Sequence record: NZ_CP103154.1
Strand: one strand, 5' to 3'
Length of the DNA stretch: 64,000 bases
Source of the DNA: a plasmid
In this document: piece by piece, positions 114 through 49,595 of the stretch
Numbering within the stretch: position 1 is the first letter of the stretch
Layout of the letters: each line of letters opens with the position of its first letter
Translations under genes and position numbers: made by a program
The notes under the pieces: generated by a model
Seen by the model: only the letters and a program-made list of their open reading frames with translations
Told to the model about the DNA's origin: nothing
The model's database searches: none

Positions 114-1454
114 ATGCAAATCATACTGTTATCCGGCGGTTCTGGTAAACGCCTATGGCCGCTTTCCAATAATACACGGTCAAAACAATTTATCAAACTG
201 TTGACTGCGCCCGATGGCTCGAAAGAGTCGATGGTGCAGCGGGTGGTACGGCAATTACGAGAAACCGGCATCTGTGATTCGATTACTGTGGCAACAAGCC
301 AGTCACAACGGGATATCATCATCAACCAGCTTGGAGAAGAGATTCCTGTAGTTACGGAACCGGAGCGTCGCGATACATTCCCGGCTATCGCTCTCGCAAG
401 CTCGTATTTGGCCTACAAACGAAAATGTTCCACCGATGAGATTATAATCGTCATGCCTTGCGACCCTTATACCGAAACAGGTTATTTTGAAACGATTCGC
501 AGGATAGCGGATGCAGTGAAAAACAATGTAGCCGAACTAGTATTGATGGGAATTAACCCCACATATCCGTCAGCAAAATACGGATATGTAGTGCCAGTCA
601 ATGATGTACAGAACAAAGGAATATTTCAAGTATCACGCTTTACGGAAAAGCCAGATATGATAACTGCCGAGAAACTTATTTCAGAGGGTGCTTTCTGGAA
701 CGGAGGCGTATTCGCTTTTCGGTTGGGGTATATGACAGATATTGTAACCCGACACATCAAAACCGACACTTTTTCAGAAATTCGTTCTCGCTATGGGGAA
801 TTTCCGAAAATCAGTTTTGACTACGAAGTCGCTGAAAAAGCGCAGTCGGTAGCCGTCGTACCTTTTGCCGGAGAGTGGAAAGACCTTGGTACATGGAATA
901 CGTTGACTGATGAACTATCGGAACACACCATGGGCAATGTTGTCATGGATGAAGAATCCGAAAATACCCACGTCATCAACGAACTTGGACTGCCAATCAT
1001 GTGCATTGGCACACGGAATCTAGTTATCGCAGCATCAAATGATGGAATCCTAATTTCGGACAAAGATAAAAGCGAGAACATCAAAACTTACGCTGACTGC
1101 CTACAACATCGGCCAATGTTCGAAGAACGTCGCTGGGGTGAATACAAAGTTGTCGATACCGCCGAGTTTTCCGACGGTTACAAATCACTTACCAAGCAAC
1201 TGAAAATCAAATCCGGTAAGAGTATCAGCTATCAGGTACACCGCCATCGCGATGAAGTCTGGACGTTTATCGACGGCGAGGGAGAACTGGTACTCGATGA
1301 TATCAGGTCGGTTATCAGCAGAGGCGATACGATTACAATCAAGAAAGGTGTTAAACATGCAGTCAGGGCTATCTCTGAATTGACGTTCATCGAGGTGCAG
1401 TCCGGAAATCTACTTGCAGAAGAAGACATTGAACAATTTGACTATAAATGGTAA
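114..1454 (+). CDS. manC: mannose-1-phosphate guanylyltransferase / mannose-6-phosphate isomerase-like (NTP-transferase + C-terminal cupin)
   Basis: N-terminal ILSGGSGKRLWPLS nucleotidyltransferase motif; C-terminal cupin-like segment (QVHRHRDEVWTFIDGEGELVLDD); 446 aa. Confidence 0.8.
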   Translation: MQIILLSGGSGKRLWPLSNNTRSKQFIKLLTAPDGSKESMVQRVVRQLRETGICDSITVATSQSQRDIIINQLGEEIPVVTEPERRDTFPAIALASSYLAYKRKCSTDEIIIVMPCDPYTETGYFETIRRIADAVKNNVAELVLMGINPTYPSAKYGYVVPVNDVQNKGIFQVSRFTEKPDMITAEKLISEGAFWNGGVFAFRLGYMTDIVTRHIKTDTFSEIRSRYGEFPKISFDYEVAEKAQSVAVVPFAGEWKDLGTWNTLTDELSEHTMGNVVMDEESENTHVINELGLPIMCIGTRNLVIAASNDGILISDKDKSENIKTYADCLQHRPMFEERRWGEYKVVDTAEFSDGYKSLTKQLKIKSGKSISYQVHRHRDEVWTFIDGEGELVLDDIRSVISRGDTITIKKGVKHAVRAISELTFIEVQSGNLLAEEDIEQFDYKW

Positions 1455-29467: not shown

Positions 29468-30153
29468 GTTAAACTTCTAATTTTATGCTTCAGCTAGATT
29501 TAAAGACCTTTTTTTAAAACCCCTTTCCGGGATGGCCTTTTCTTTCTGCCGACTTTTTTTTTGAGCTTTCATGCCCCATCTGAGTTTATGAGCCTTTTTT
29601 TTACGGCACACAACAATAAGGAAGGAGGGATTAAGAAAAGTTTTGGACGACAAAAAATGTTGGGGACAGCGAAGCCGTCCGGCGTTATTTTTTCGGGACA
29701 AAGGGGCGAAGACCGGAACTCTTTCGTATCCATCCACCGAAATAAATTTGCCGTTCAAAAACAAAGGATCTCAGATGGAGCTATGAAAAAAGCACATTAG
29801 GGGAGGCAGAAAACAAGGAAAAGGGCAGTACGGAAAGTAAAACAAACCATACGGTTTTGCTTGCAAAACCGTATTCCTATCTCCCTGCCACAAGTGACAG
29901 GGGGGGAACGGGTTAGCAACGGACTGCCGGGACAAACGGTAAAAGGAAGGAACTGCAATACGGAAGAAGGAGGTTGTTTCGGCAATGCCGAAGCTCCGGA
30001 TGATGACCATTGCAATCCCGCCCACGTTTGGAACTTCTCTTTTCTGGTTTGCCCATAATCAGCCGCATAGCGGATGACTACGGGCAAACCGGGAATGAGA
30101 ACAGTCATTCCGATGAAGGGGAGGGTGGGGAAGAATACTGCGTGAACGCAAAA
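29468..30153. repeat. ~685-bp conserved noncoding module, copy A; structured-RNA or regulatory candidate
   Basis: Near-identical to 38571-39252 and 41639-42320; internal ORFs are not frame-conserved between copies; many hairpins; its left end lies about 20 nt from the start codon of the 29447 operon. Confidence 0.8.
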
Positions 30154-30159
30154 ACACTC

Positions 30160-30200: not shown

Positions 30201-31400
30201 TCATTTGCTTGCTTTTTTCTTTTTAGAGACAGCCTTCTGTTTAGGCTGATCCGGTTTTTCTTCTTCTTTTTCCGGAGCCGGATAAAACTTGGTGGCTACC
30301 ATCACAATGCGGTTACGCTTCTCCCCACTTTTAGAATCCGTCCATTCTTCCGGCTTAAAGTAGCCTTCAACGGTTATCAGCTCACCTTTTTTCAATACAT
30401 CGAAGGAATCCAGTGCTTCATTCTTTCTCCAGGCTTCAATCCCCATGAAAGCGGAAACATAAGAGGTTTCTTCACCTGTCTTGTCTGCACGGCTGACCGC
30501 GATAGAAAAGCGTGCTACGCTTGCTGTTTCAAAACTACGGATTTCTGCATCCTTACCGATAAAACCTGTTACTGCGAATGAATTTTCAATCTTTTTCATA
30601 TCTCTGATTTTTTAGAAGTTAATTAATCAATTTTACAGTGCAATAACTGATTGTTGGCTTTGGGGGACACCATGAAAAAAGATATAAATACTCTTTTTAT
30701 GCTGGCCGGAAAAAGGAAGATTTGTAACTTTTTTATTGGTGAAGATGGCAGCAAATAATTCGGGTTAAATACGCTTTTTATGCAAGGCAAAAAAAGGAAG
30801 ATTTCAGACGAATAACAACGTGGTGTTTGTGAATCGTCCCCTTATCCCCGTAAAAGGGGTTAGCAACAATCTATATTTGCAACGGAAAATGATTTGACTT
30901 CCCTAAAAAATGATATGAAAAAGACAAAACTTGAAAATCAGCAACAGGTTTGGAAAGGATGCAAAAAACAACCGGTCAGACAGCAAGCATGGCACATTCC
31001 GAAAATATGGTCAGCCGCCTATCGACACACCGGAAGAAACCTCTGCAATTCCTTTTAAAAAAATGAAGCCGAAGAATGAAGCATACAATATTCCACGTAT
31101 CGAAAAAAGTGACTGCACGATAAAATGAAAGGCTGCAACGGAAGAACAGACTTGCGGATTCTGCGGGGAGAACATAACCATACAGGCATACAGCCACTAC
31201 AACTGTTTCCGGAAAAAGAAGATTATACAACCGGAAAAACAGAAAGGCATCCACTCGGAGAAAAGCAAGCAAACGATTGAAGCGGACTGCCGATTTAGCG
31301 GCGAAATATCCGACTACCTATATACAGCCCTAAAAGGCTGGGGCATATGGGTAAGCAACAGACTGCCGGGCAAATAAAAGGAGAGTGGCATAGCCGCCGG
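30181..31400. repeat. segmental duplication, copy 1: ssb plus its ~700-bp upstream leader; copy 2 at 33379-34590
   Basis: Long collinear identity between 30181-31400 and 33379-34590, including the terminator, the ssb gene body (decayed in copy 2) and the upstream noncoding region. Confidence 0.8.
30201..30599 (-). CDS. ssb: single-stranded DNA-binding protein-like (OB fold), plasmid/ICE type
   Basis: 132 aa; FAVTGFIGKDAEIRSFETASVARFSIAVSR...ITVEGYFKPEEWTDSKSGEKRNRIVMVATKF; Lys-rich tail. Confidence 0.7.
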   Translation of the reverse strand: MKKIENSFAVTGFIGKDAEIRSFETASVARFSIAVSRADKTGEETSYVSAFMGIEAWRKNEALDSFDVLKKGELITVEGYFKPEEWTDSKSGEKRNRIVMVATKFYPAPEKEEEKPDQPKQKAVSKKKKASK

Positions 31401-33378: not shown

Positions 33379-34590
33379 GCAAACGATTGAAGCGACCTTG
33401 TGCCGCTTCAATCGTTTGATTGCTTTTTCTTTTTAGTCCGGGGGTTCTTATTTTTCCGGAGTCGGGTAGAACTTAGTAGCTACCATCACAATGCGGTTAC
33501 GTTTCTCCCCACTTTTAGAATCCGTCCATTCTTCCGGCTTAAAGTAGCCTTCAACGGTAATCAGTACATCTTTTTGCAGTATCCAAAAAGCATAGCGGTC
33601 TTCCATCTTACTCTAGGCTTCAACTTTCATAACAGAGGAAACAAATGTTTTTTCTTCATTTATCTTGCCTATGCGACTGACCACAATAGAGAAGTGTGCA
33701 ACCTTTACTATTTCGAATAAATGGATTTCTGCATCCCTACAAATCCTGCCTGTTACTGCGAATGAATTTTCAATCTTTTTCATATCTCTGATTTTTTAGA
33801 AGTTAATTAATCAATTTTACAGTGCAATAACTGATTGTTGGCTTTGGGGGACACCATGAAAAAGATATAAATACTCTTTTTATGCTGGCCGGAAAAAGGA
33901 AGATTTGTAACTTTTTTATTGGTGAAGATGGCAACGAATAATTCGGGTTAAATACGCTTTTTGTGCAAGGCAAAAAAGGAAGATTTCAGACGAATAACAA
34001 CGTGGTGTTTGTGAATCGTCCCCTTATCCCCGTAAAAGGGGTTAGCAACAATCTATATTTGCAACGGAAAATGATTTGACTTCCCTAAAAAATGATATGA
34101 AAAAGACAAAACTTGAAAATCAGTAACAGGTTTGGAAAGGATGCAAAAAACAACCGGTTAGACAGCAAGCATGGCACATCCCGAAAAGATGGTCAGCCGC
34201 CTATCGACACACCGGAAGAAACATCTGCAATTCCTTTTAAAAAAATGAAGCCGAAGAATGAAGCATATCATATTCCACGTATCGAAAAAAGTGACTGCAC
34301 GATAAAATGAAAAGCTGCAACGGAAGAACTGACTTGCGGATTCTGCGGGAGAACATAACCACACAGGCATACAGCCACTACACCTGTTTCCAATAAAAGA
34401 AGATTACACCACCGGAAAAGCAGAAAGGCTCCACTCGGAGAAAAGCAAGCAAACGATTGAAGCGGACTGCCGATTTGGCAGCGAAATATCCAACTACCTA
34501 TCTACAGCCCTAAAAGGCTAGGACATATGGGTAAGCAACAGACTGCCGGGCAGTCACTCCGCTGAAAGGGTGGGTGGGAAAAAACTAAGT
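33379..34590. repeat. segmental duplication, copy 2 (see 30181-31400)
   Basis: Collinear with copy 1; carries the ssb pseudogene and a deletion variant of the structured module at 34508-34580. Confidence 0.8.
33420..33790 (-). pseudogene. degenerate second copy of the ssb gene
   Basis: DNA homologous to 30201..30599 but with indels and stops; no intact ORF. Confidence 0.6.
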
Positions 34591-35583: not shown

Positions 35584-35879
35584 ATTCTTGTTGTTATTAC
35601 TTTAGCATATTTTCGAAAACACCTTCTTCACAGTTCTTTATACACACCTGACACTCGGCCACCACTTCTCTTAATATTCGGGCACATTCTTCATTCGAAT
35701 GCCCTTGCAGTAATTCATAGGCATATCGCATCAGTTCATTAGCTTCCATTGTTTCCATCCTTATCAATAATATTCAAGTTCATCATTATTTTCTGCAACG
35801 ACTCCATATTTGGAGTTCCTAACCAACACACACCTATGCAAAAGGTCATATTGTTCTCTGTATCTGAAAAACGCATATT

Positions 35880-37230
35880 GTTTTACCTTTTACAAACATT
35901 GTTGTCCCATTAAAATCTAAAAGAGTTCTTTGAAATATTTGAAATTTAGTTAGTTACAGCGATTTTCCGAGCGAACGGACTTGAATTTGTAGCTTTGCAT
36001 CAGATTAATCCGATGGCATATGTTCCAAGACAAATACGTTTTCGCTCAATTGGCTTCATTTCTGAATCGAAGTAAGTTTAACCGCATAGTCACCAAGTAT
36101 GATGGTGATAAATATGTGAAGCACTTCACCTGCTGGAATCAACTACTTGCTTTGATGTTTGGTCAACTTTCTAATCGTGAAAGTCTGCGAGATTTGATAG
36201 TTGCTCTTGAAGCTCATCATTCCAAATGTTATCATTTAGGAATGGGTAAAAATGTATCAAAGTCATCGCTGGCAAGAGCAAATCAAGATAGAGACTATCA
36301 CATCTTTGAAGAATATGCTTACTACCTGGTTAGCGAAGCACGACAAAAGTGTGCTAATCATATTTTCAAACTTGGCGGTAACGTTTATGCTTTCGATTCG
36401 ACTACTATTGACCTGTGCCTTTCAGTCTTTTGGTGGGCAAAATTCCGCAAAAAGAAAGGTGGTATCAAAGTGCATACATTATATGATGTGGAAACACAGA
36501 TTCCTGCATTCTTTCATATCACGGAAGCATCCGTACACGATTCTAAAGTTATGATTGAAATTCCTTATGAACCAAGCTCTTATTACATCTTTGACCGCGG
36601 TTATAACAACTTCAAAATACTGTATAAAATTCATCAAATTGAAGCCTACTTTGTTGTCAGAGCAAAAAAGAATCTCGGGTACAAATCCATCCAATGGAAA
36701 CGTAGGCTGCCTAAGAATGTGCTTTCAGACGCAAGTGTATTTCTGACAGGATTCTATCCTAAACAATATTATCCAGAGCCACTTAGACTGGTTAAATATT
36801 GGGATGAAGAACAAGAACGAGAATTTACATTCATAACCAATGCGATGCATATATCTGCGCTTCAAGTTGCTGAACTTTATAAAAATCGCTGGCAGGTAGA
36901 GCTGTTTTTCAAATGGCTCAAGCAGCACCTTAAAATCAAAAGATTTTGGGGAACTACAGAGAATGCTGTTCGAATACAGATATATGCTGCTATATGCGCT
37001 TACTGTTTGGTGGCAATCATTCAACACGATATGCAACTGAACAGAAGTACATATGAAGTGTTACAAATACTGAGCATCTCATTGACTGATAAGACTCATC
37101 TGAGAGACCTCTTTGATAAAACTAAATTTCAAAATGACAAAGAACGATTCGGACCAAATGGGCCAAGTTTATTTAATTTTTAATTCGTCCCAATTTTAAT
37201 GGGACACTAATGTTTTACAAAGGTAAAACA
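35880..37230 (+). mobile_element. IS4-family insertion sequence (~1.35 kb)
   Basis: Imperfect ~37-bp terminal inverted repeats (left GTTTTACCTTTTACAAACATTGTTGTCCCATTAAAAT; right end is its reverse complement with three mismatches) bracket a DDE transposase gene. Confidence 0.8.
36020..37183 (+). CDS. IS4-family DDE transposase
   Basis: 387 aa; YAFDSTTIDLC and IFDRGY Asp motifs and NRWQVELFFKWLKQ Glu region typical of the IS4/DDE_Tnp_1 family. Confidence 0.85.
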   Translation: MFQDKYVFAQLASFLNRSKFNRIVTKYDGDKYVKHFTCWNQLLALMFGQLSNRESLRDLIVALEAHHSKCYHLGMGKNVSKSSLARANQDRDYHIFEEYAYYLVSEARQKCANHIFKLGGNVYAFDSTTIDLCLSVFWWAKFRKKKGGIKVHTLYDVETQIPAFFHITEASVHDSKVMIEIPYEPSSYYIFDRGYNNFKILYKIHQIEAYFVVRAKKNLGYKSIQWKRRLPKNVLSDASVFLTGFYPKQYYPEPLRLVKYWDEEQEREFTFITNAMHISALQVAELYKNRWQVELFFKWLKQHLKIKRFWGTTENAVRIQIYAAICAYCLVAIIQHDMQLNRSTYEVLQILSISLTDKTHLRDLFDKTKFQNDKERFGPNGPSLFNF

Positions 37231-37376
37231 ATTAAGTAAAATTCATCTATCATTGCTTTTCATATTTATTGTGTCTTTCTCTTTTGCATCGGAAGTATTA
37301 GCACTTACAGCAACCAGACAGTATGACATCGCCACGTTTGATCATACCGCTGGAAAACAACGATATACAATCTGAA

Positions 37377-38009
37377 TCAAAACAGATTGTATATCACCAA
37401 TTTCTTTTTTTGTGCCTTGTTAAACGTATAAGAAGTTCCTCCGGCAGATTTTCCATCCCAATAGGCAATCAGCCTACAGGCGTGTGAAATCATGTAATCA
37501 TTACGGTGGGCATAGCATTGGGCATAATAATATTCGGATAGAACTACCACCTTGTCGGCTTGGCGCAAAATATCAGCATACCTCTGTTTGTCCTCTTTGT
37601 TGAAATACACATCTTGCCCGACATAAGGAACAACCGCCACCAAAACCATATCGGGATATTGTTTCCTTTGTTCAAGTACGGTATGAGCAGCCATCATGTC
37701 AAATCCAACCGCACAACCAATATAGAAAAAACGGATTCCATTCTCATAGCAGAAACGTACCTCTTCATTCAACGATACGGACAAAGCATATTTATTTGTT
37801 CGTATCGTTCTATGACCGGTAAAAGCAACGGACATCATTTTCATCCATTTATCACGTGCCTTTCTACATATATCCAACGAACCTGCCGAAGTTTCATACA
37901 CCATTCCATTCACCTCATAACGATAAGTGAACCAAGTAGTATCTCCAAAGATATCCTTCTGCTTCTCTATATAACTCTCTTTTTCTTTCATCTTATAACA
38001 TACGGACAA
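37377..38009 (-). CDS. SLOG-superfamily protein (DprA/YpsA/DUF1273-like Rossmann domain)
   Basis: VAFTGHRT, IGCAVGFDMMAAHTVLE and HRNDYMISHACRLIAYWDGKSAGGTSYT motifs match the SLOG (Smf/DprA-LOG) pattern; 210 aa. Confidence 0.6.
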   Translation of the reverse strand: MSVCYKMKEKESYIEKQKDIFGDTTWFTYRYEVNGMVYETSAGSLDICRKARDKWMKMMSVAFTGHRTIRTNKYALSVSLNEEVRFCYENGIRFFYIGCAVGFDMMAAHTVLEQRKQYPDMVLVAVVPYVGQDVYFNKEDKQRYADILRQADKVVVLSEYYYAQCYAHRNDYMISHACRLIAYWDGKSAGGTSYTFNKAQKKKLVIYNLF

Positions 38010-38559
38010 CTGTTTTACCTAAAAAGAAACCTCCCAAAACCTCACCTCCTATTTTTTCCAACTGACATGCGAAACGAGCATACGAAAACCCTTTTGTTAA
38101 AATATCGTCAAATACCAAGATTTTCTTACCCCGAAAAAAGTCCTTGTCAAATTCTATCACTTGTACTTTTTGAAGCGACTTGCTGTCAAATTTCTCGTGA
38201 ATAGCCAAACGATCTCCACTGACACGTATATGTTCATACGCATTGATAGCACCTGAAAACTTACACACAGCCGAAGCAAACCCCTTATAACGAAGTTCAT
38301 TCTTATCAGCGGAAGAAGCCGGAACACAAGCAAAAACAATATTCTTAACATCATCACCAAAAACTTGATGTAACTTATTCGCTATCATCCAAGCTATATT
38401 CAAATAAGCTTTTCCATCCTTAAAACTCCATATCATCTTACGAATTTGCCATTCTCTTTCCGTTGCCTGCCGATATTGCATAGGAAGATACTCAAAGAAA
38501 GAAAACATCATCTTATGCCATTGTCTGTCTAAACTAGGATATTTACTCTGATGTGCCAT
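37993..38559 (-). CDS. phosphoribosyltransferase-fold protein (ComF-like PRTase)
   Basis: C-terminal PRPP-binding-like motif KKILVFDDILTKGFSYARFACQLEKIGGEV; 188 aa; overlaps the SLOG gene by 17 nt. Confidence 0.6.
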   Translation of the reverse strand: MAHQSKYPSLDRQWHKMMFSFFEYLPMQYRQATEREWQIRKMIWSFKDGKAYLNIAWMIANKLHQVFGDDVKNIVFACVPASSADKNELRYKGFASAVCKFSGAINAYEHIRVSGDRLAIHEKFDSKSLQKVQVIEFDKDFFRGKKILVFDDILTKGFSYARFACQLEKIGGEVLGGFFLGKTVVRML

Positions 38560-38570
38560 AGTCTTTTATC

Positions 38571-39252
38571 TATTAAAATTAAACTTATGCTTCAGCTAGA
38601 TTTAAAGACCTTTTTTTAAACCCCTTTCCGGGATGGCCTTTTCTTTCTGCCGACTTTTTTTTTGAGCTTTCATGCCCCATCTGAGTTTATGAGCCTTTTT
38701 TTTACGGCACGCATCAATAAGGAAGGAGGGATTAAGAAAAGTTTTGGACGACAAAAAATGTTGGGGACAGCGAAGCCGTCCGGCGTTATTTTTTTCGGGA
38801 CAAAGGGCGAAGACCGGAACTCTTTCGTATCCATCCACCGAAATAAATTTGCCGTTCAAAAACAAAGGATCTCAGATGGAGCTATGAAAAAAGCACATTA
38901 GGGGAGGCAGAAAACAAGGAAAAGGGCAGTACGGAAAGTAAAACAAGCCATACGGTTTTGCAAGCAAAACCATACTCCTATCTCCCTGCCACAAGTGACA
39001 GGGGGGAACGGGTTAGCAACGGACTGCCGGGACAAACGGTAAAAGGAAGGGACTGCAATACGGAAGAAGGAGGTTGTTTCGGCAATGCCGAAGCTCCGGA
39101 TGATGACCATTGCAATCCCGCCCACGTTTGGAACTTCTCTTTTCCGGTTTACCCATAATCAGCCGCATAGCGGATGATTACGGGTAAACCGGGAATGAGA
39201 ACAGTCATTCCGATGAAGGGGAGGGTGGGAAAGAATACTGCGTGAACGCAAA
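38571..39252. repeat. ~685-bp conserved noncoding module, copy B
   Basis: Near-identical to copies A and C; its left end abuts the start codon (38559) of the PRTase-SLOG operon. Confidence 0.8.
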
Positions 39253-39370
39253 TTAATGGGATTACCAGTAACTCCAAGCGTTTTTTGCTACTTTTTTGGG
39301 GTGCTTGCCAAAAAGTAGCGGACAGCAAAATACCCTCCCTTCCCTAATCCAAAAGAAGGGAGAATGTGCT

Positions 39371-41638: not shown

Positions 41639-42320
41639 GTTAAACTTCTAATTTTATGCTTCAGCTAGATTTAAAGACCTTTTTTTAAAACCCCTTTCCG
41701 GGATGGCCTTTTCTTTCTGCCGACTTTTTTTTTGAGCTTTCATGCCCCATCTGAGTTTATGAGCCTTTTTTTACGGCACACAACAATAAGGAAGGAGGGA
41801 TTAAGAAAAGTTTTGGACGACAAAAAATGTTGGGGACAGCGAAGCCGTCCGGCGTTATTTTTTTCGGGACAAAGGGCGAAGACCGGAACTCTTTCGTATC
41901 CATCCACCGAAATAAATTTGCCGTTCAAAAACAAAGGGTCTCAGATGGGGCTATGAAAAACGCACATTAAGGGAGGCAGAAAACTAGGAAAAGGGCAGTA
42001 CGGAAAGTAAAACAAGCCATACGGTTTTGCCTGCAAAACCGTATTCCTATCTCCCTGCCACAAGTGGCAGGGGGAACGGGTTAGCAACGGACTGCCGGGA
42101 CAAACGGTAAAAGGACGGGGCTGCAATACGGAAGAAGGAGGTTGTTTCGGCAATGCCGAAGCTCCGGATGATGACCATTGCAATCCCGCCCACGTTTGGA
42201 ACTTCTCTTTTCCGGTTTGCCCATAATCAGCCGCATAGCGGATGACTACGGGTAAACCGGAAATGAGAACAGTCATTCCGATGAAGGGGAGGGTGGGAAA
42301 GAATACTGCGTGAACGCAAA
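41639..42320. repeat. ~685-bp conserved noncoding module, copy C
   Basis: Near-identical to copies A and B; flanked by a minus-strand operon on the left and a plus-strand operon on the right; a TAnnTTTG-like -7 box (TACTTTTG) lies just beyond its right end. Confidence 0.8.
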
Positions 42321-42423
42321 AACACAGTATGTCATCTTAAAACAATATCTTTAAAAAGTTTTTCAGAAGAAATGCTTACCAATATCCTAATAATTATTAC
42401 TTTTGATAACATAATACAACGAT

Positions 42424-48899: not shown

Positions 48900-49595
48900 T
48901 TACCTATTTTGCAATCTTCCCTCGTCCGCATAGCTATAATAGTTATTGCCTGCCACAATCACATGGTCAACCAAACGGATGTCTAATGTTTCAGCGGCTT
49001 TTTTAACTGCTTCCGTCAAGCGGTCATCCGCACTGCTGGGCTTGCGTGCTCCTGATGGGTGGTTATGTACCATGATAAAAGATACGGCGTTATAATACAA
49101 TGCCTGCTTCATGATAACCCGTATATCCACAGGGGCGGTATTTATCCCGCCGCATGAGATACGGACTTTACGGATGAGTTTGGACGAACTGTTCAGCAAC
49201 AGCACCCACATCTCTTCAGTAGCTATATCGCACAAAACAGGATGCATCATTTTATAAACATTATTGCTGGATAAAAGCGCAGGACTTTCAACTTGCCCTT
49301 CTTTCAGCCGTTTATATAGCTCAATCGCCGCATAAGCGACTTTTTTACGGCTGGGTGTTAGTGTTTCCAGTACATCAGACAAGCACAATCCTTCTATTTC
49401 CATCTGTTCATACTTATATTCTTCACGTTTCAGTTTCTCACTGTTCGTCAAGGTATAAATCAACTCGCTGTTTTCCATCACCCGATAAACGTCATTCACT
49501 TCAAATACGGTTCTCTTCGTTTTCATACTGCCAAAAATTAAAAGATTAATACTCGCAAACATCGCTTGTCGCCCCAACCATAAATTTTTCCTCAA
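48900..49595 (-). CDS. radC: RadC-like JAB/MPN-domain protein
   Basis: HNHPSGARKPSSAD JAMM motif; 231 aa. Confidence 0.8.
   Translation of the reverse strand: MRKNLWLGRQAMFASINLLIFGSMKTKRTVFEVNDVYRVMENSELIYTLTNSEKLKREEYKYEQMEIEGLCLSDVLETLTPSRKKVAYAAIELYKRLKEGQVESPALLSSNNVYKMMHPVLCDIATEEMWVLLLNSSSKLIRKVRISCGGINTAPVDIRVIMKQALYYNAVSFIMVHNHPSGARKPSSADDRLTEAVKKAAETLDIRLVDHVIVAGNNYYSYADEGRLQNR

Follow-up and report, generated by a model that had tools for sequence, protein, structure and literature searches.

A phosphoribosyltransferase-SLOG gene pair on a pMMCAT-type plasmid of gut Bacteroidales and its relation to ShosTA and RqlHI

The stretch of sequence record NZ_CP103154.1 analysed here, 64,000 nucleotides (nt) long and called the window throughout, belongs to a Bacteroidales conjugative plasmid of the pMMCAT type with a size of about 98 kb, and carries on its minus strand two adjacent genes for a phosphoribosyltransferase (PRTase) and a SLOG family protein. 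Among the conjugative elements of human gut Bacteroidales, plasmids of the pMMCAT type reportedly rank with the most pervasive. PRTase plus SLOG pairs are proven defence or toxin-antitoxin (TA) systems in Escherichia coli. Judged by sequence, the window pair appears to be a minimal, YpsA-type variant of this known class of modules, already annotated and located on a very widespread gut plasmid.

Described PRTase-SLOG pairs and the plasmid pair

An earlier note on this DNA proposed that the two genes form a PRTase-fold and SLOG operon on a mobile element, but did not know the pair as a described system. The folds, the tight coupling and the mobile-element association stand, while the novelty was overstated, given ShosTA, RqlHI/PsyrTA and the YpsA-PRTase branch noted in 2019. 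Pairs of a PRTase toxin and a DprA-like SLOG antitoxin have been characterised experimentally (ShosTA, PMC11961720, PMC12961424; RqlHI/PsyrTA, PMC4670107; 10.1101/2022.05.11.491447), and Millman et al. describe both ShosTA and PsyrTA as a toxin with a PRTase domain together with a DprA-like antitoxin (10.1101/2022.05.11.491447). ShosTA of E. coli APEC O1 is a type IV TA and abortive-infection phage defence system (PMC11961720, PMC12961424). Its toxin ShosT (424 aa) combines a pyrophosphatase-like hydrolase at the N terminus with a PRTase at the C terminus (PMC11961720), binds phosphoribosyl pyrophosphate (PRPP) and requires the DD motif for toxicity, whereas ShosA, with a SAM and a DprA-like domain, binds to single-stranded DNA (ssDNA) as well as to RecA and neutralises ShosT without binding to it (PMC11961720, PMC12961424). 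In the second system, rqlH lies immediately upstream of rqlI, RqlH has a PRTase domain that is genotoxic when RqlI is missing, and a D-to-A mutation in the PRPP pocket abolishes the toxicity (PMC4670107). Two further descriptions, that of a YpsA-family branch coupled to a PRTase by Brzozowski et al. (2019, PMC6459960) and that of ComFC-like PRTases from invasive elements by Iyer et al. (2017, PMC5512222), are computational notes with no experiment, named system or mechanism.

The window pair resembles ShosTA in being a two-gene unit of a PRPP-binding PRTase and a SLOG-superfamily partner, with an intact DD PRPP loop and carriage on mobile DNA, and it resembles RqlHI/PsyrTA in having the PRTase gene directly upstream of the SLOG gene. 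The window PRTase, however, is a single PRTase domain of 188 aa, lacking both the pyrophosphatase (PPase)-like N-terminal domain of ShosT and the helicase of RqlH, which is a RecQ-like helicase of about 690 aa with a C-terminal PRTase. Strict membership of ShosTA or RqlHI thus fails on architecture, because the PPase or helicase domain is missing and the SLOG protein is of the YpsA clade, without a SAM or helix-turn-helix (HTH) domain.

The sequence links to the ShosT/PsyrT and ShosA models are weak but consistent. The PADLOC ShosT model (PDLC03962) matches the window PRTase with an E value of 1.2e-10 and all 32 of the 32 relatives searched. The PsyrT model matches 27 of these 32 relatives (best E value 1.1e-8) and does not match the window PRTase at E<=1, and the ShosA model weakly matches 9 of 27 SLOG relatives (best E value 2.2e-4). 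Likened by description, the window pair most probably represents the PRTase-coupled YpsA branch (PMC6459960) joined to an invasive-element ComFC-like PRTase (PMC5512222), sharing with these types the YpsA-family SLOG protein, the solo PRTase, the location on a conjugative element, the DD motif and the nearly invariant arginine R90. For the type of Iyer et al., to which the family is provisionally likened and which is marked by a DD motif, a conserved arginine after strand 2 and carriage, solo or fused, on phages or conjugative elements, the observations here are an invariant DD, a nearly invariant R90, an occurrence on plasmids, in regions resembling integrative and conjugative elements (ICEs) and on phage contigs, and a presence also in proteins of 400-1060 aa.

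The assignment of the 188-aa protein to a ComF-like type I PRTase fold holds, and the protein is a ComFC-like, stand-alone type I PRTase, probably of the "invasive-element" type. Its core is structurally like ComFC, its fold resembles APRT, HGPRT and OPRT, and ComF and DprA are the nearest structures to the two proteins of the pair. The Pfam Pribosyltran model reaches 15 bits, which is below threshold, as are all salvage PRTase models; the NCBIfam search yielded only salvage PRTases far below threshold (e.g., 16.8 versus 150 bits) and no comF model at E<=1, the comF family model TIGR00201 included. Searches of PDB sequences, with the single sequence and with a profile, matched the PRPP loop alone and reached ShosT with an E value of 0.15. 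The family is large, with 143 clusters in the first search and 1,655 representative clusters at E<=1e-3 in the exhaustive search. Its invariant features are the FDD...G PRPP loop (F150-D151-D152...G157 among 32 relatives), an FKDG motif and H121, and a CVPASS segment is, like R90, nearly invariant. The N-terminal four-cysteine zinc finger of ComFC is absent, with no cysteine in residues 1-77.

The same PRTase domain is found at the C terminus of many larger proteins of 400-1060 aa (E values 1e-36 to 1e-67; among them P0172, P0199, P0203, P0208, P0213 and P0233, with two PRTase domains in P0172). The N-terminal regions of these proteins are long, lysine-rich and partly membrane-anchored, and the Pfam search detected no N-terminal domain in them, only DUF6273, ankyrin and HTH_40 domains on the C-terminal side. 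Other family members likewise end in DUF6273, with or without ankyrin repeats, or in HTH_40. No fusion of PRTase and SLOG genes was found among the 316 proteins fetched; one candidate (P0313) looks like a junction artefact and was rejected.

The SLOG fold proposed for the second protein is confirmed and is of the YpsA clade. The Pfam domain YpsA (Pfam ID PF06908) matches with 73.4 bits (cutoff 27.7; E value 2.9e-20), and the YpsA structure (PDB ID 2nx2) matches by sequence with an E value of 4.5e-10 and by fold with an E value of 8e-12 and a TM-score of 0.76. The second fold match is HpDprA (PDB ID 5mll; E value 4e-6), followed more weakly by the SLOG domains of ThsA, LOG and TRPM. The AlphaFold2 model (pLDDT 94) shows a beta-rich N-terminal extension of about 57 aa, followed by a SLOG Rossmann domain of about 150 aa. 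Residues invariant among 27 relatives are F63-G65-R67, G98-A100-G102-F103-D104, R169-N170, G190 and T195, which include, as G102-F103-D104, the GxD/E nucleotide-pocket motif whose importance is described for YpsA (PMC6459960). The protein differs from YpsA of Bacillus subtilis, a cell division inhibitor to which it is about 20% identical, in its extra N-terminal domain, its location on a plasmid and its coupling to a PRTase, and it differs from the YpsA "proper" clade, a cell division regulator of Firmicutes, in having no synteny with gpsB. The relation to DprA is one of fold-level similarity to HpDprA, with no match to Pfam DNA_processg_A (Pfam ID PF02481) or the other DprA domains at E<=1. 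The N-terminal extension (residues 1-57) is confidently modelled as four strands plus a helix, with LD.CRK as a conserved motif. Proteins of the Bacteroides/Phocaeicola clade have this extension and forms of about 160 aa lack it, and in one relative (L164:11241-11885) it weakly matches DUF3873, a domain of unknown function.

Both open reading frames (ORFs) of the earlier note are present on the minus strand (37993..38559 and 37377..38009), and the motifs it quoted (ILVFDDILTKGFSYARFA...GGEV, TGHRT, GCAVGFDMMAAH and HRNDYMISHACRLIAYWDGKSAGGTSYT) all occur in the translations. Both are real genes, since 143 PRTase and 49 SLOG homologue clusters are found, down to about 45% identity and with conserved motifs; RefSeq names them "phosphoribosyltransferase" and "SLOG family protein". 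The claimed overlap of 17 nt arises only with the longest SLOG ORF, which begins at a TTG at 38009 and encodes 210 aa, whereas RefSeq and the homologues start at the ATG at 37991 (MKEKESY...), 1 nt past the PRTase stop codon. SLOG starts in 99 distinct homologous pairs were assigned by the ATG nearest to the PRTase stop, after a rule taking the first ATG of the ORF was rejected for yielding spurious long overlaps. An in-frame ATG lies within -4 to +4 nt of the PRTase stop in 92 of the 99 distinct sequences, and therefore the conserved trait of the junction is abutment and not overlap; a junction of 0-4 nt is also present in the called genes of three loci (L161, L168 and L171). The tight operonic coupling proposed before is thus borne out, and the 1-nt junction probably allows translational coupling.

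Conservation of the pairing and exchange of the partner

The genome scan took one genome per species and gave 80 loci, 79 of which matched at an E value of 1e-5, essentially all from Bacteroidales. A SLOG gene, a RadC-like JAB gene (Pfam ID PF04002; E value 6e-42) or both lie directly downstream of the PRTase gene in 75 of the 79 loci, which divide into 41 PRTase-SLOG, 32 PRTase-RadC and 2 PRTase-RadC-SLOG arrangements. The remaining 4 are uninformative: two lie at contig ends, one copy is disrupted and one is a distant relative (31% identical). Seen from the other gene, 73 of the 76 SLOG-seeded metagenome loci that could be evaluated have the PRTase directly upstream, and further triple arrangements occur; this coupling again sets the family apart from the YpsA "proper" clade. 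The three exceptions are one IS21-type insertion into the SLOG gene and two solo SLOG genes in GC-rich contigs, so that the few solo occurrences seen concern the SLOG gene rather than the PRTase.

The choice of partner tracks the type of element, with SLOG in conjugative elements and RadC in phages. On the viral contigs of IMG/VR (L172-L251), RadC is the partner in 79 of 80 cases, the lone SLOG case being a pMMCAT fragment, and a prophage is the likely setting of one PRTase-RadC locus for which genes were called. The SLOG-type loci adjoin genes for the type IV coupling protein (T4CP), Toprim, single-stranded DNA-binding protein (SSB), ArdC-N and TraM, or for SSB, ParA and a RecD2-like helicase, or lie on a plasmid-like contig with Rep3 and ParA. 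Of the 41 PRTase-SLOG loci, 27 have an SSB gene within 3.5 kb, as do both triple loci, compared to none of the 32 PRTase-RadC loci. The exchange of SLOG for RadC by element type and the SSB linkage are not reported in PMC6459960 or PMC5512222; together with the counts for obligate pairing and the conserved structured leader described below, they are new as far as we found.

The three parts of the PRTase-RadC-SLOG triad are all present on pMMCAT, but split: a RadC-like JAB gene lies at 48900-49595 on the minus strand (Pfam ID PF04002; E value 5e-39), about 10 kb from the pair and with no PRTase adjoining. Some cassettes were found in metagenome-assembled genomes (MAGs) labelled as Alphaproteobacteria, Oscillospiraceae, Roseburia, Lachnospiraceae and Oscillibacter (L003, L005, L035, L039, L063, L068 and L077), with identities to the window PRTase of up to 98% (L003) and 95% (L005). 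These labels most likely reflect binning errors of mobile-element contigs and not the real host range.

The phage and prophage contigs carry a P-loop protein of about 556-584 aa (...RGTGKSEG.DARF...) at a distance of about 2.5 kb from the PRTase in 72 of 80 cases; the observation takes in L029:7583-9253 and L169/L170 as well. The 556-aa protein has no Pfam or PHROG match; it may be terminase-like and come from a so far uncharacterised group of Bacteroidales phages.

Possible functions of the pair

Our first-ranked but tentative reading takes the pair as a minimal mobile-element version of the effector and antidote class to which ShosTA and RqlHI/PsyrTA belong; by analogy with these systems, the PRTase is presumed to be toxic and the SLOG protein to neutralise it, and the biological role is likewise presumed. 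The small, basic, ComFC-like PRTase would bind PRPP via its intact DD loop and, when alone, would perturb nucleotide or DNA metabolism, being growth-inhibiting or genotoxic like ShosT and RqlH. The translationally coupled YpsA-clade SLOG protein would keep it harmless, most likely by an indirect action in the style of type IV systems, such as binding of ssDNA or a nucleotide, or hydrolysis of the PRTase product. On pMMCAT the module may help to retain the plasmid, to exclude phages or competing elements abortively, or to do both, and its activity could be tied to the appearance of ssDNA. This reading is suggested by the domain pair and its order, PRTase upstream and SLOG downstream, which match RqlH-RqlI, with the same domain pair in ShosT-ShosA, and by the weak but consistent PADLOC matches to ShosT, PsyrT and ShosA. 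The PRTase family keeps its catalytic DD/PRPP loop invariant, the stop-start junction of 0-4 nt is conserved, and the PRTase is essentially never alone while solo SLOG genes occur, an asymmetry expected of a toxin and its antidote. The classical TA cassette HipBA, lying in the same cargo region, also points in this direction.

Several points weigh against an effector and antidote. Toxicity and neutralisation in YpsA-type pairs are predictions, and in RqlH the isolated PRTase domain is insufficient for toxicity (PMC4670107). The window SLOG protein does not match the PADLOC ShosA model and is, with its extension of about 57 aa, a member of the YpsA clade and not of the DprA clade as ShosA is, lacking both the SAM domain of ShosA and the extra HTH of RqlI. 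The surroundings, with SSB, PcfJ/K, an orphan N6 methylase, LPD28 and ArdC-N, are typical of conjugative establishment and anti-defence functions, the long leader is common to the PRTase, PcfK and LPD28/methylase cassettes and not to HipBA, and the partner choice by element type fits a function in DNA entry at least as well.

Such a function, our main alternative and in our view possible although somewhat unlikely, would make the pair a cooperative module for DNA entry or establishment, in which the PRTase and the SLOG protein act jointly on incoming plasmid ssDNA in the recipient and neither is a toxin. The module would protect the strand, hand it over to RecA or to replication, or damp the SOS response, assisted by the RadC-like JAB protein and the nearby SSB where present, and would mirror the cytoplasmic machinery of natural transformation (SsbB, ComFC, DprA and RadC). 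The genes ssbB, dprA, radC and comFC are late competence genes. Both proteins of the pair are basic (median pI about 9.3 for the PRTase and 9.1 for the SLOG protein), as in the ComFC and DprA pair, have ComF and DprA as their nearest structures and are associated with SSB and RadC homologues. The window pair lies among PcfJ/K, SSB, the orphan N6 methylase and LPD28, related pairs adjoin T4CP, Toprim, ArdC-N/MPTase and TraM or SSB, ParA and a RecD2-like helicase, and the structured conserved leader is shared with the PcfK and LPD28/methylase cassettes. The partner would follow the form of the entering DNA, as the distribution of SLOG and RadC over conjugative elements and viral contigs suggests. 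The proposal of the earlier note that the pair processes incoming ssDNA accordingly gains circumstantial support from the 29 of 43 SLOG-type loci that have an SSB gene no more than 3.5 kb away and from the RadC-like JAB protein as an alternative or additional partner. On the other side, the sole PRTase plus SLOG pairs studied experimentally behave as TA or abortive-infection systems, the zinc finger of ComFC and its helicase partner ComFA are absent, the neighbouring genes are plasmid cargo and not a competence operon, the position of the pair in a leading region is presumed, and ssDNA binding by a YpsA-clade SLOG protein is putative. It is rather doubtful that the pair is, instead of a TA system, a conjugation-specific counterpart of the machinery that transformation employs in the cytoplasm, in which SSB, a ComFC-like PRTase, in part RadC, and a DprA-like SLOG protein would act on entering ssDNA under a conserved structured leader shared with establishment cassettes, with the partner matched to the DNA form (SLOG to the ssDNA of conjugative elements, RadC-JAB to the double-stranded DNA of phages). 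The toxin-antidote and ssDNA-entry readings are not exclusive, because the ShosTA antidote itself works through ssDNA and RecA.

A role in nucleotide-signal counter-defence, the other idea of the earlier note, is improbable. Here the SLOG protein would bind or cleave an immune messenger, e.g., an isomer of cyclic ADP-ribose (cADPR), and the PRTase would recycle or make a nucleotide, blunting Thoeris- or CBASS-like systems. The two chemistries are complementary, in that a PRTase uses PRPP to form an N-glycosidic bond and SLOG enzymes of the LOG type hydrolyse it. The region around the pair resembles anti-defence regions, SLOG domains of ThsA that bind cADPR isomers are among the weak fold matches (PDB IDs 8wc0 and 7uxs; E values about 5e-3 to 7e-3), and viral YpsA-like SLOG domains are predicted to degrade cADPR-type signals (PMC9503650). 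These are distant SLOG analogies, however: neither a known anti-Thoeris or anti-CBASS protein nor ThsA is linked at the sequence level, the PADLOC matches point to ShosT, PsyrT and ShosA instead, the neighbourhood contains no genes for a cyclase, a TIR protein or a sensor, and the replacement of SLOG by RadC-JAB as well as the SSB linkage would be left unexplained. That the two genes encode ordinary nucleotide-salvage or housekeeping enzymes riding on the plasmid is very unlikely and was rejected. The fold is like that of APRT, HGPRT and OPRT, and relatives are sometimes named "predicted amidophosphoribosyltransferase", but the salvage-family matches stay far under the curated cutoffs, members of the family occur exclusively on plasmids, in ICE-like regions and on phage contigs, a SLOG or RadC gene always accompanies the PRTase, and both proteins are basic.

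Without the PPase, helicase, SAM and HTH domains, the window pair reduces the problem of PRTase acceptor and SLOG neutralisation to its core, and the switch between SLOG with SSB in conjugative elements and RadC in phages offers a comparative handle on whether such modules sense ssDNA or act on it. As a maintenance or abortive module, the pair would matter for how stable a major gut plasmid is and how it spreads; as an establishment factor, it would matter for the survival of conjugative DNA at entry. Should the conjugation-specific counterpart be true, a tractable pair could reveal the role of the PRPP-binding domain of ComFC-type proteins on DNA.

Leader module and plasmid neighbourhood

The window contains genes for a relaxase, TraG/VirB4, TraM, T4CP, a Toprim protein, ParA and a resolvase. 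Its PRTase is 100% identical to that of the pMMCAT plasmids of about 98 kb from many Bacteroides, Parabacteroides and Phocaeicola species, the identical gene is found in at least 22 plasmid records across these three genera, and the gene order is the same as in NZ_CP072253.1, where the two genes are annotated as "phosphoribosyltransferase" and "SLOG family protein". The carriage on a mobile element that was proposed before is therefore evident for the pMMCAT plasmid and extends to related pairs on other conjugative elements; the folds are related to those named, and the pair is not a housekeeping operon lacking mobile-element association. In the order of transcription, the minus-strand cassettes are LPD28...N6 methylase, PRTase-SLOG, an inserted IS4 element, DUF3791/DUF3990, HipB/HipA, SSB and PcfK/PcfJ.

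The description of the pair as cargo-island genes headed by module copy B is correct, with the noncoding module ending about 25 nt before the ATG of the PRTase (Table 1). The module of about 680 nt is present in three copies that are about 97% identical (29478-30157, 38585-39262 and 41649-42325), each of which stops 20-35 nt short of the ATG that opens a cassette, namely, PcfK/PcfJ, PRTase/SLOG and LPD28...N6-methylase. Copy B folds well beyond its shuffled sequences on both strands (z of -6.4 and -7.6), and the 3' portion of about 300 nt is kept at 75-78% upstream of PRTase genes whose proteins are about 60% identical, where it is also multicopy. The consensus forms a long nested hairpin with the outer helix CCCCATCTGAG / CTCAGATGGGG and compensatory changes at 10 pairs. 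An Rfam scan of the region from 27 to 45 kb identified no family for the module. It could function as a Frpo-like single-strand promoter or as an ssi signal of a conjugative element, or else as a structured RNA leader.

Table 1. Features of the PRTase-SLOG cassette and related leader copies
Feature	Position	Strand	Description
PRTase gene	37993..38559	minus	Stand-alone type I phosphoribosyltransferase, ComFC-like, 188 aa, ATG start; upstream member of the pair
SLOG gene	37377..37991	minus	YpsA clade, 204 aa from the conserved ATG at 37991; downstream member of the pair; RefSeq WP_005868759.1 "SLOG family protein"
Gene junction TAA-g-ATG	37989..37995	minus	1 nt between PRTase stop and SLOG start (sequence reading)
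Leader/promoter module "copy B"	38585..39262	minus	Noncoding, about 680 nt; repeat families D1, D2, D5 and D8; alignment A3
Related leader copies	L008:5669-5963 and 1714-2004; L013:5652-5951 and 1487-1780; L101:4115-4413 and 445-738		

The text of the pMMCAT preprint and one supplement do not mention the genes of the pair; its authors mention five TA pairs, which are unlisted. The IS4-family element (35877-37232) begins 145 nt past the SLOG stop and stands between the pair and the DUF3791/DUF3990 cassette; the reference record of pMMCAT has it too. It is composed of a DDE transposase gene on the plus strand (36020-37183) and inverted repeats of 40 nt (35877-35916 and 37193-37232). A direct repeat pair of about 1.1 kb (30261-31372 and 33445-34552), 78-98% identical in pieces, precedes the SSB...PcfK and the HipBA / DUF3791-DUF3990 cassettes. 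Its segment with 78% identity (33445-33744) corresponds to the SSB gene itself (30261-30560), suggesting a degenerate second copy of SSB.

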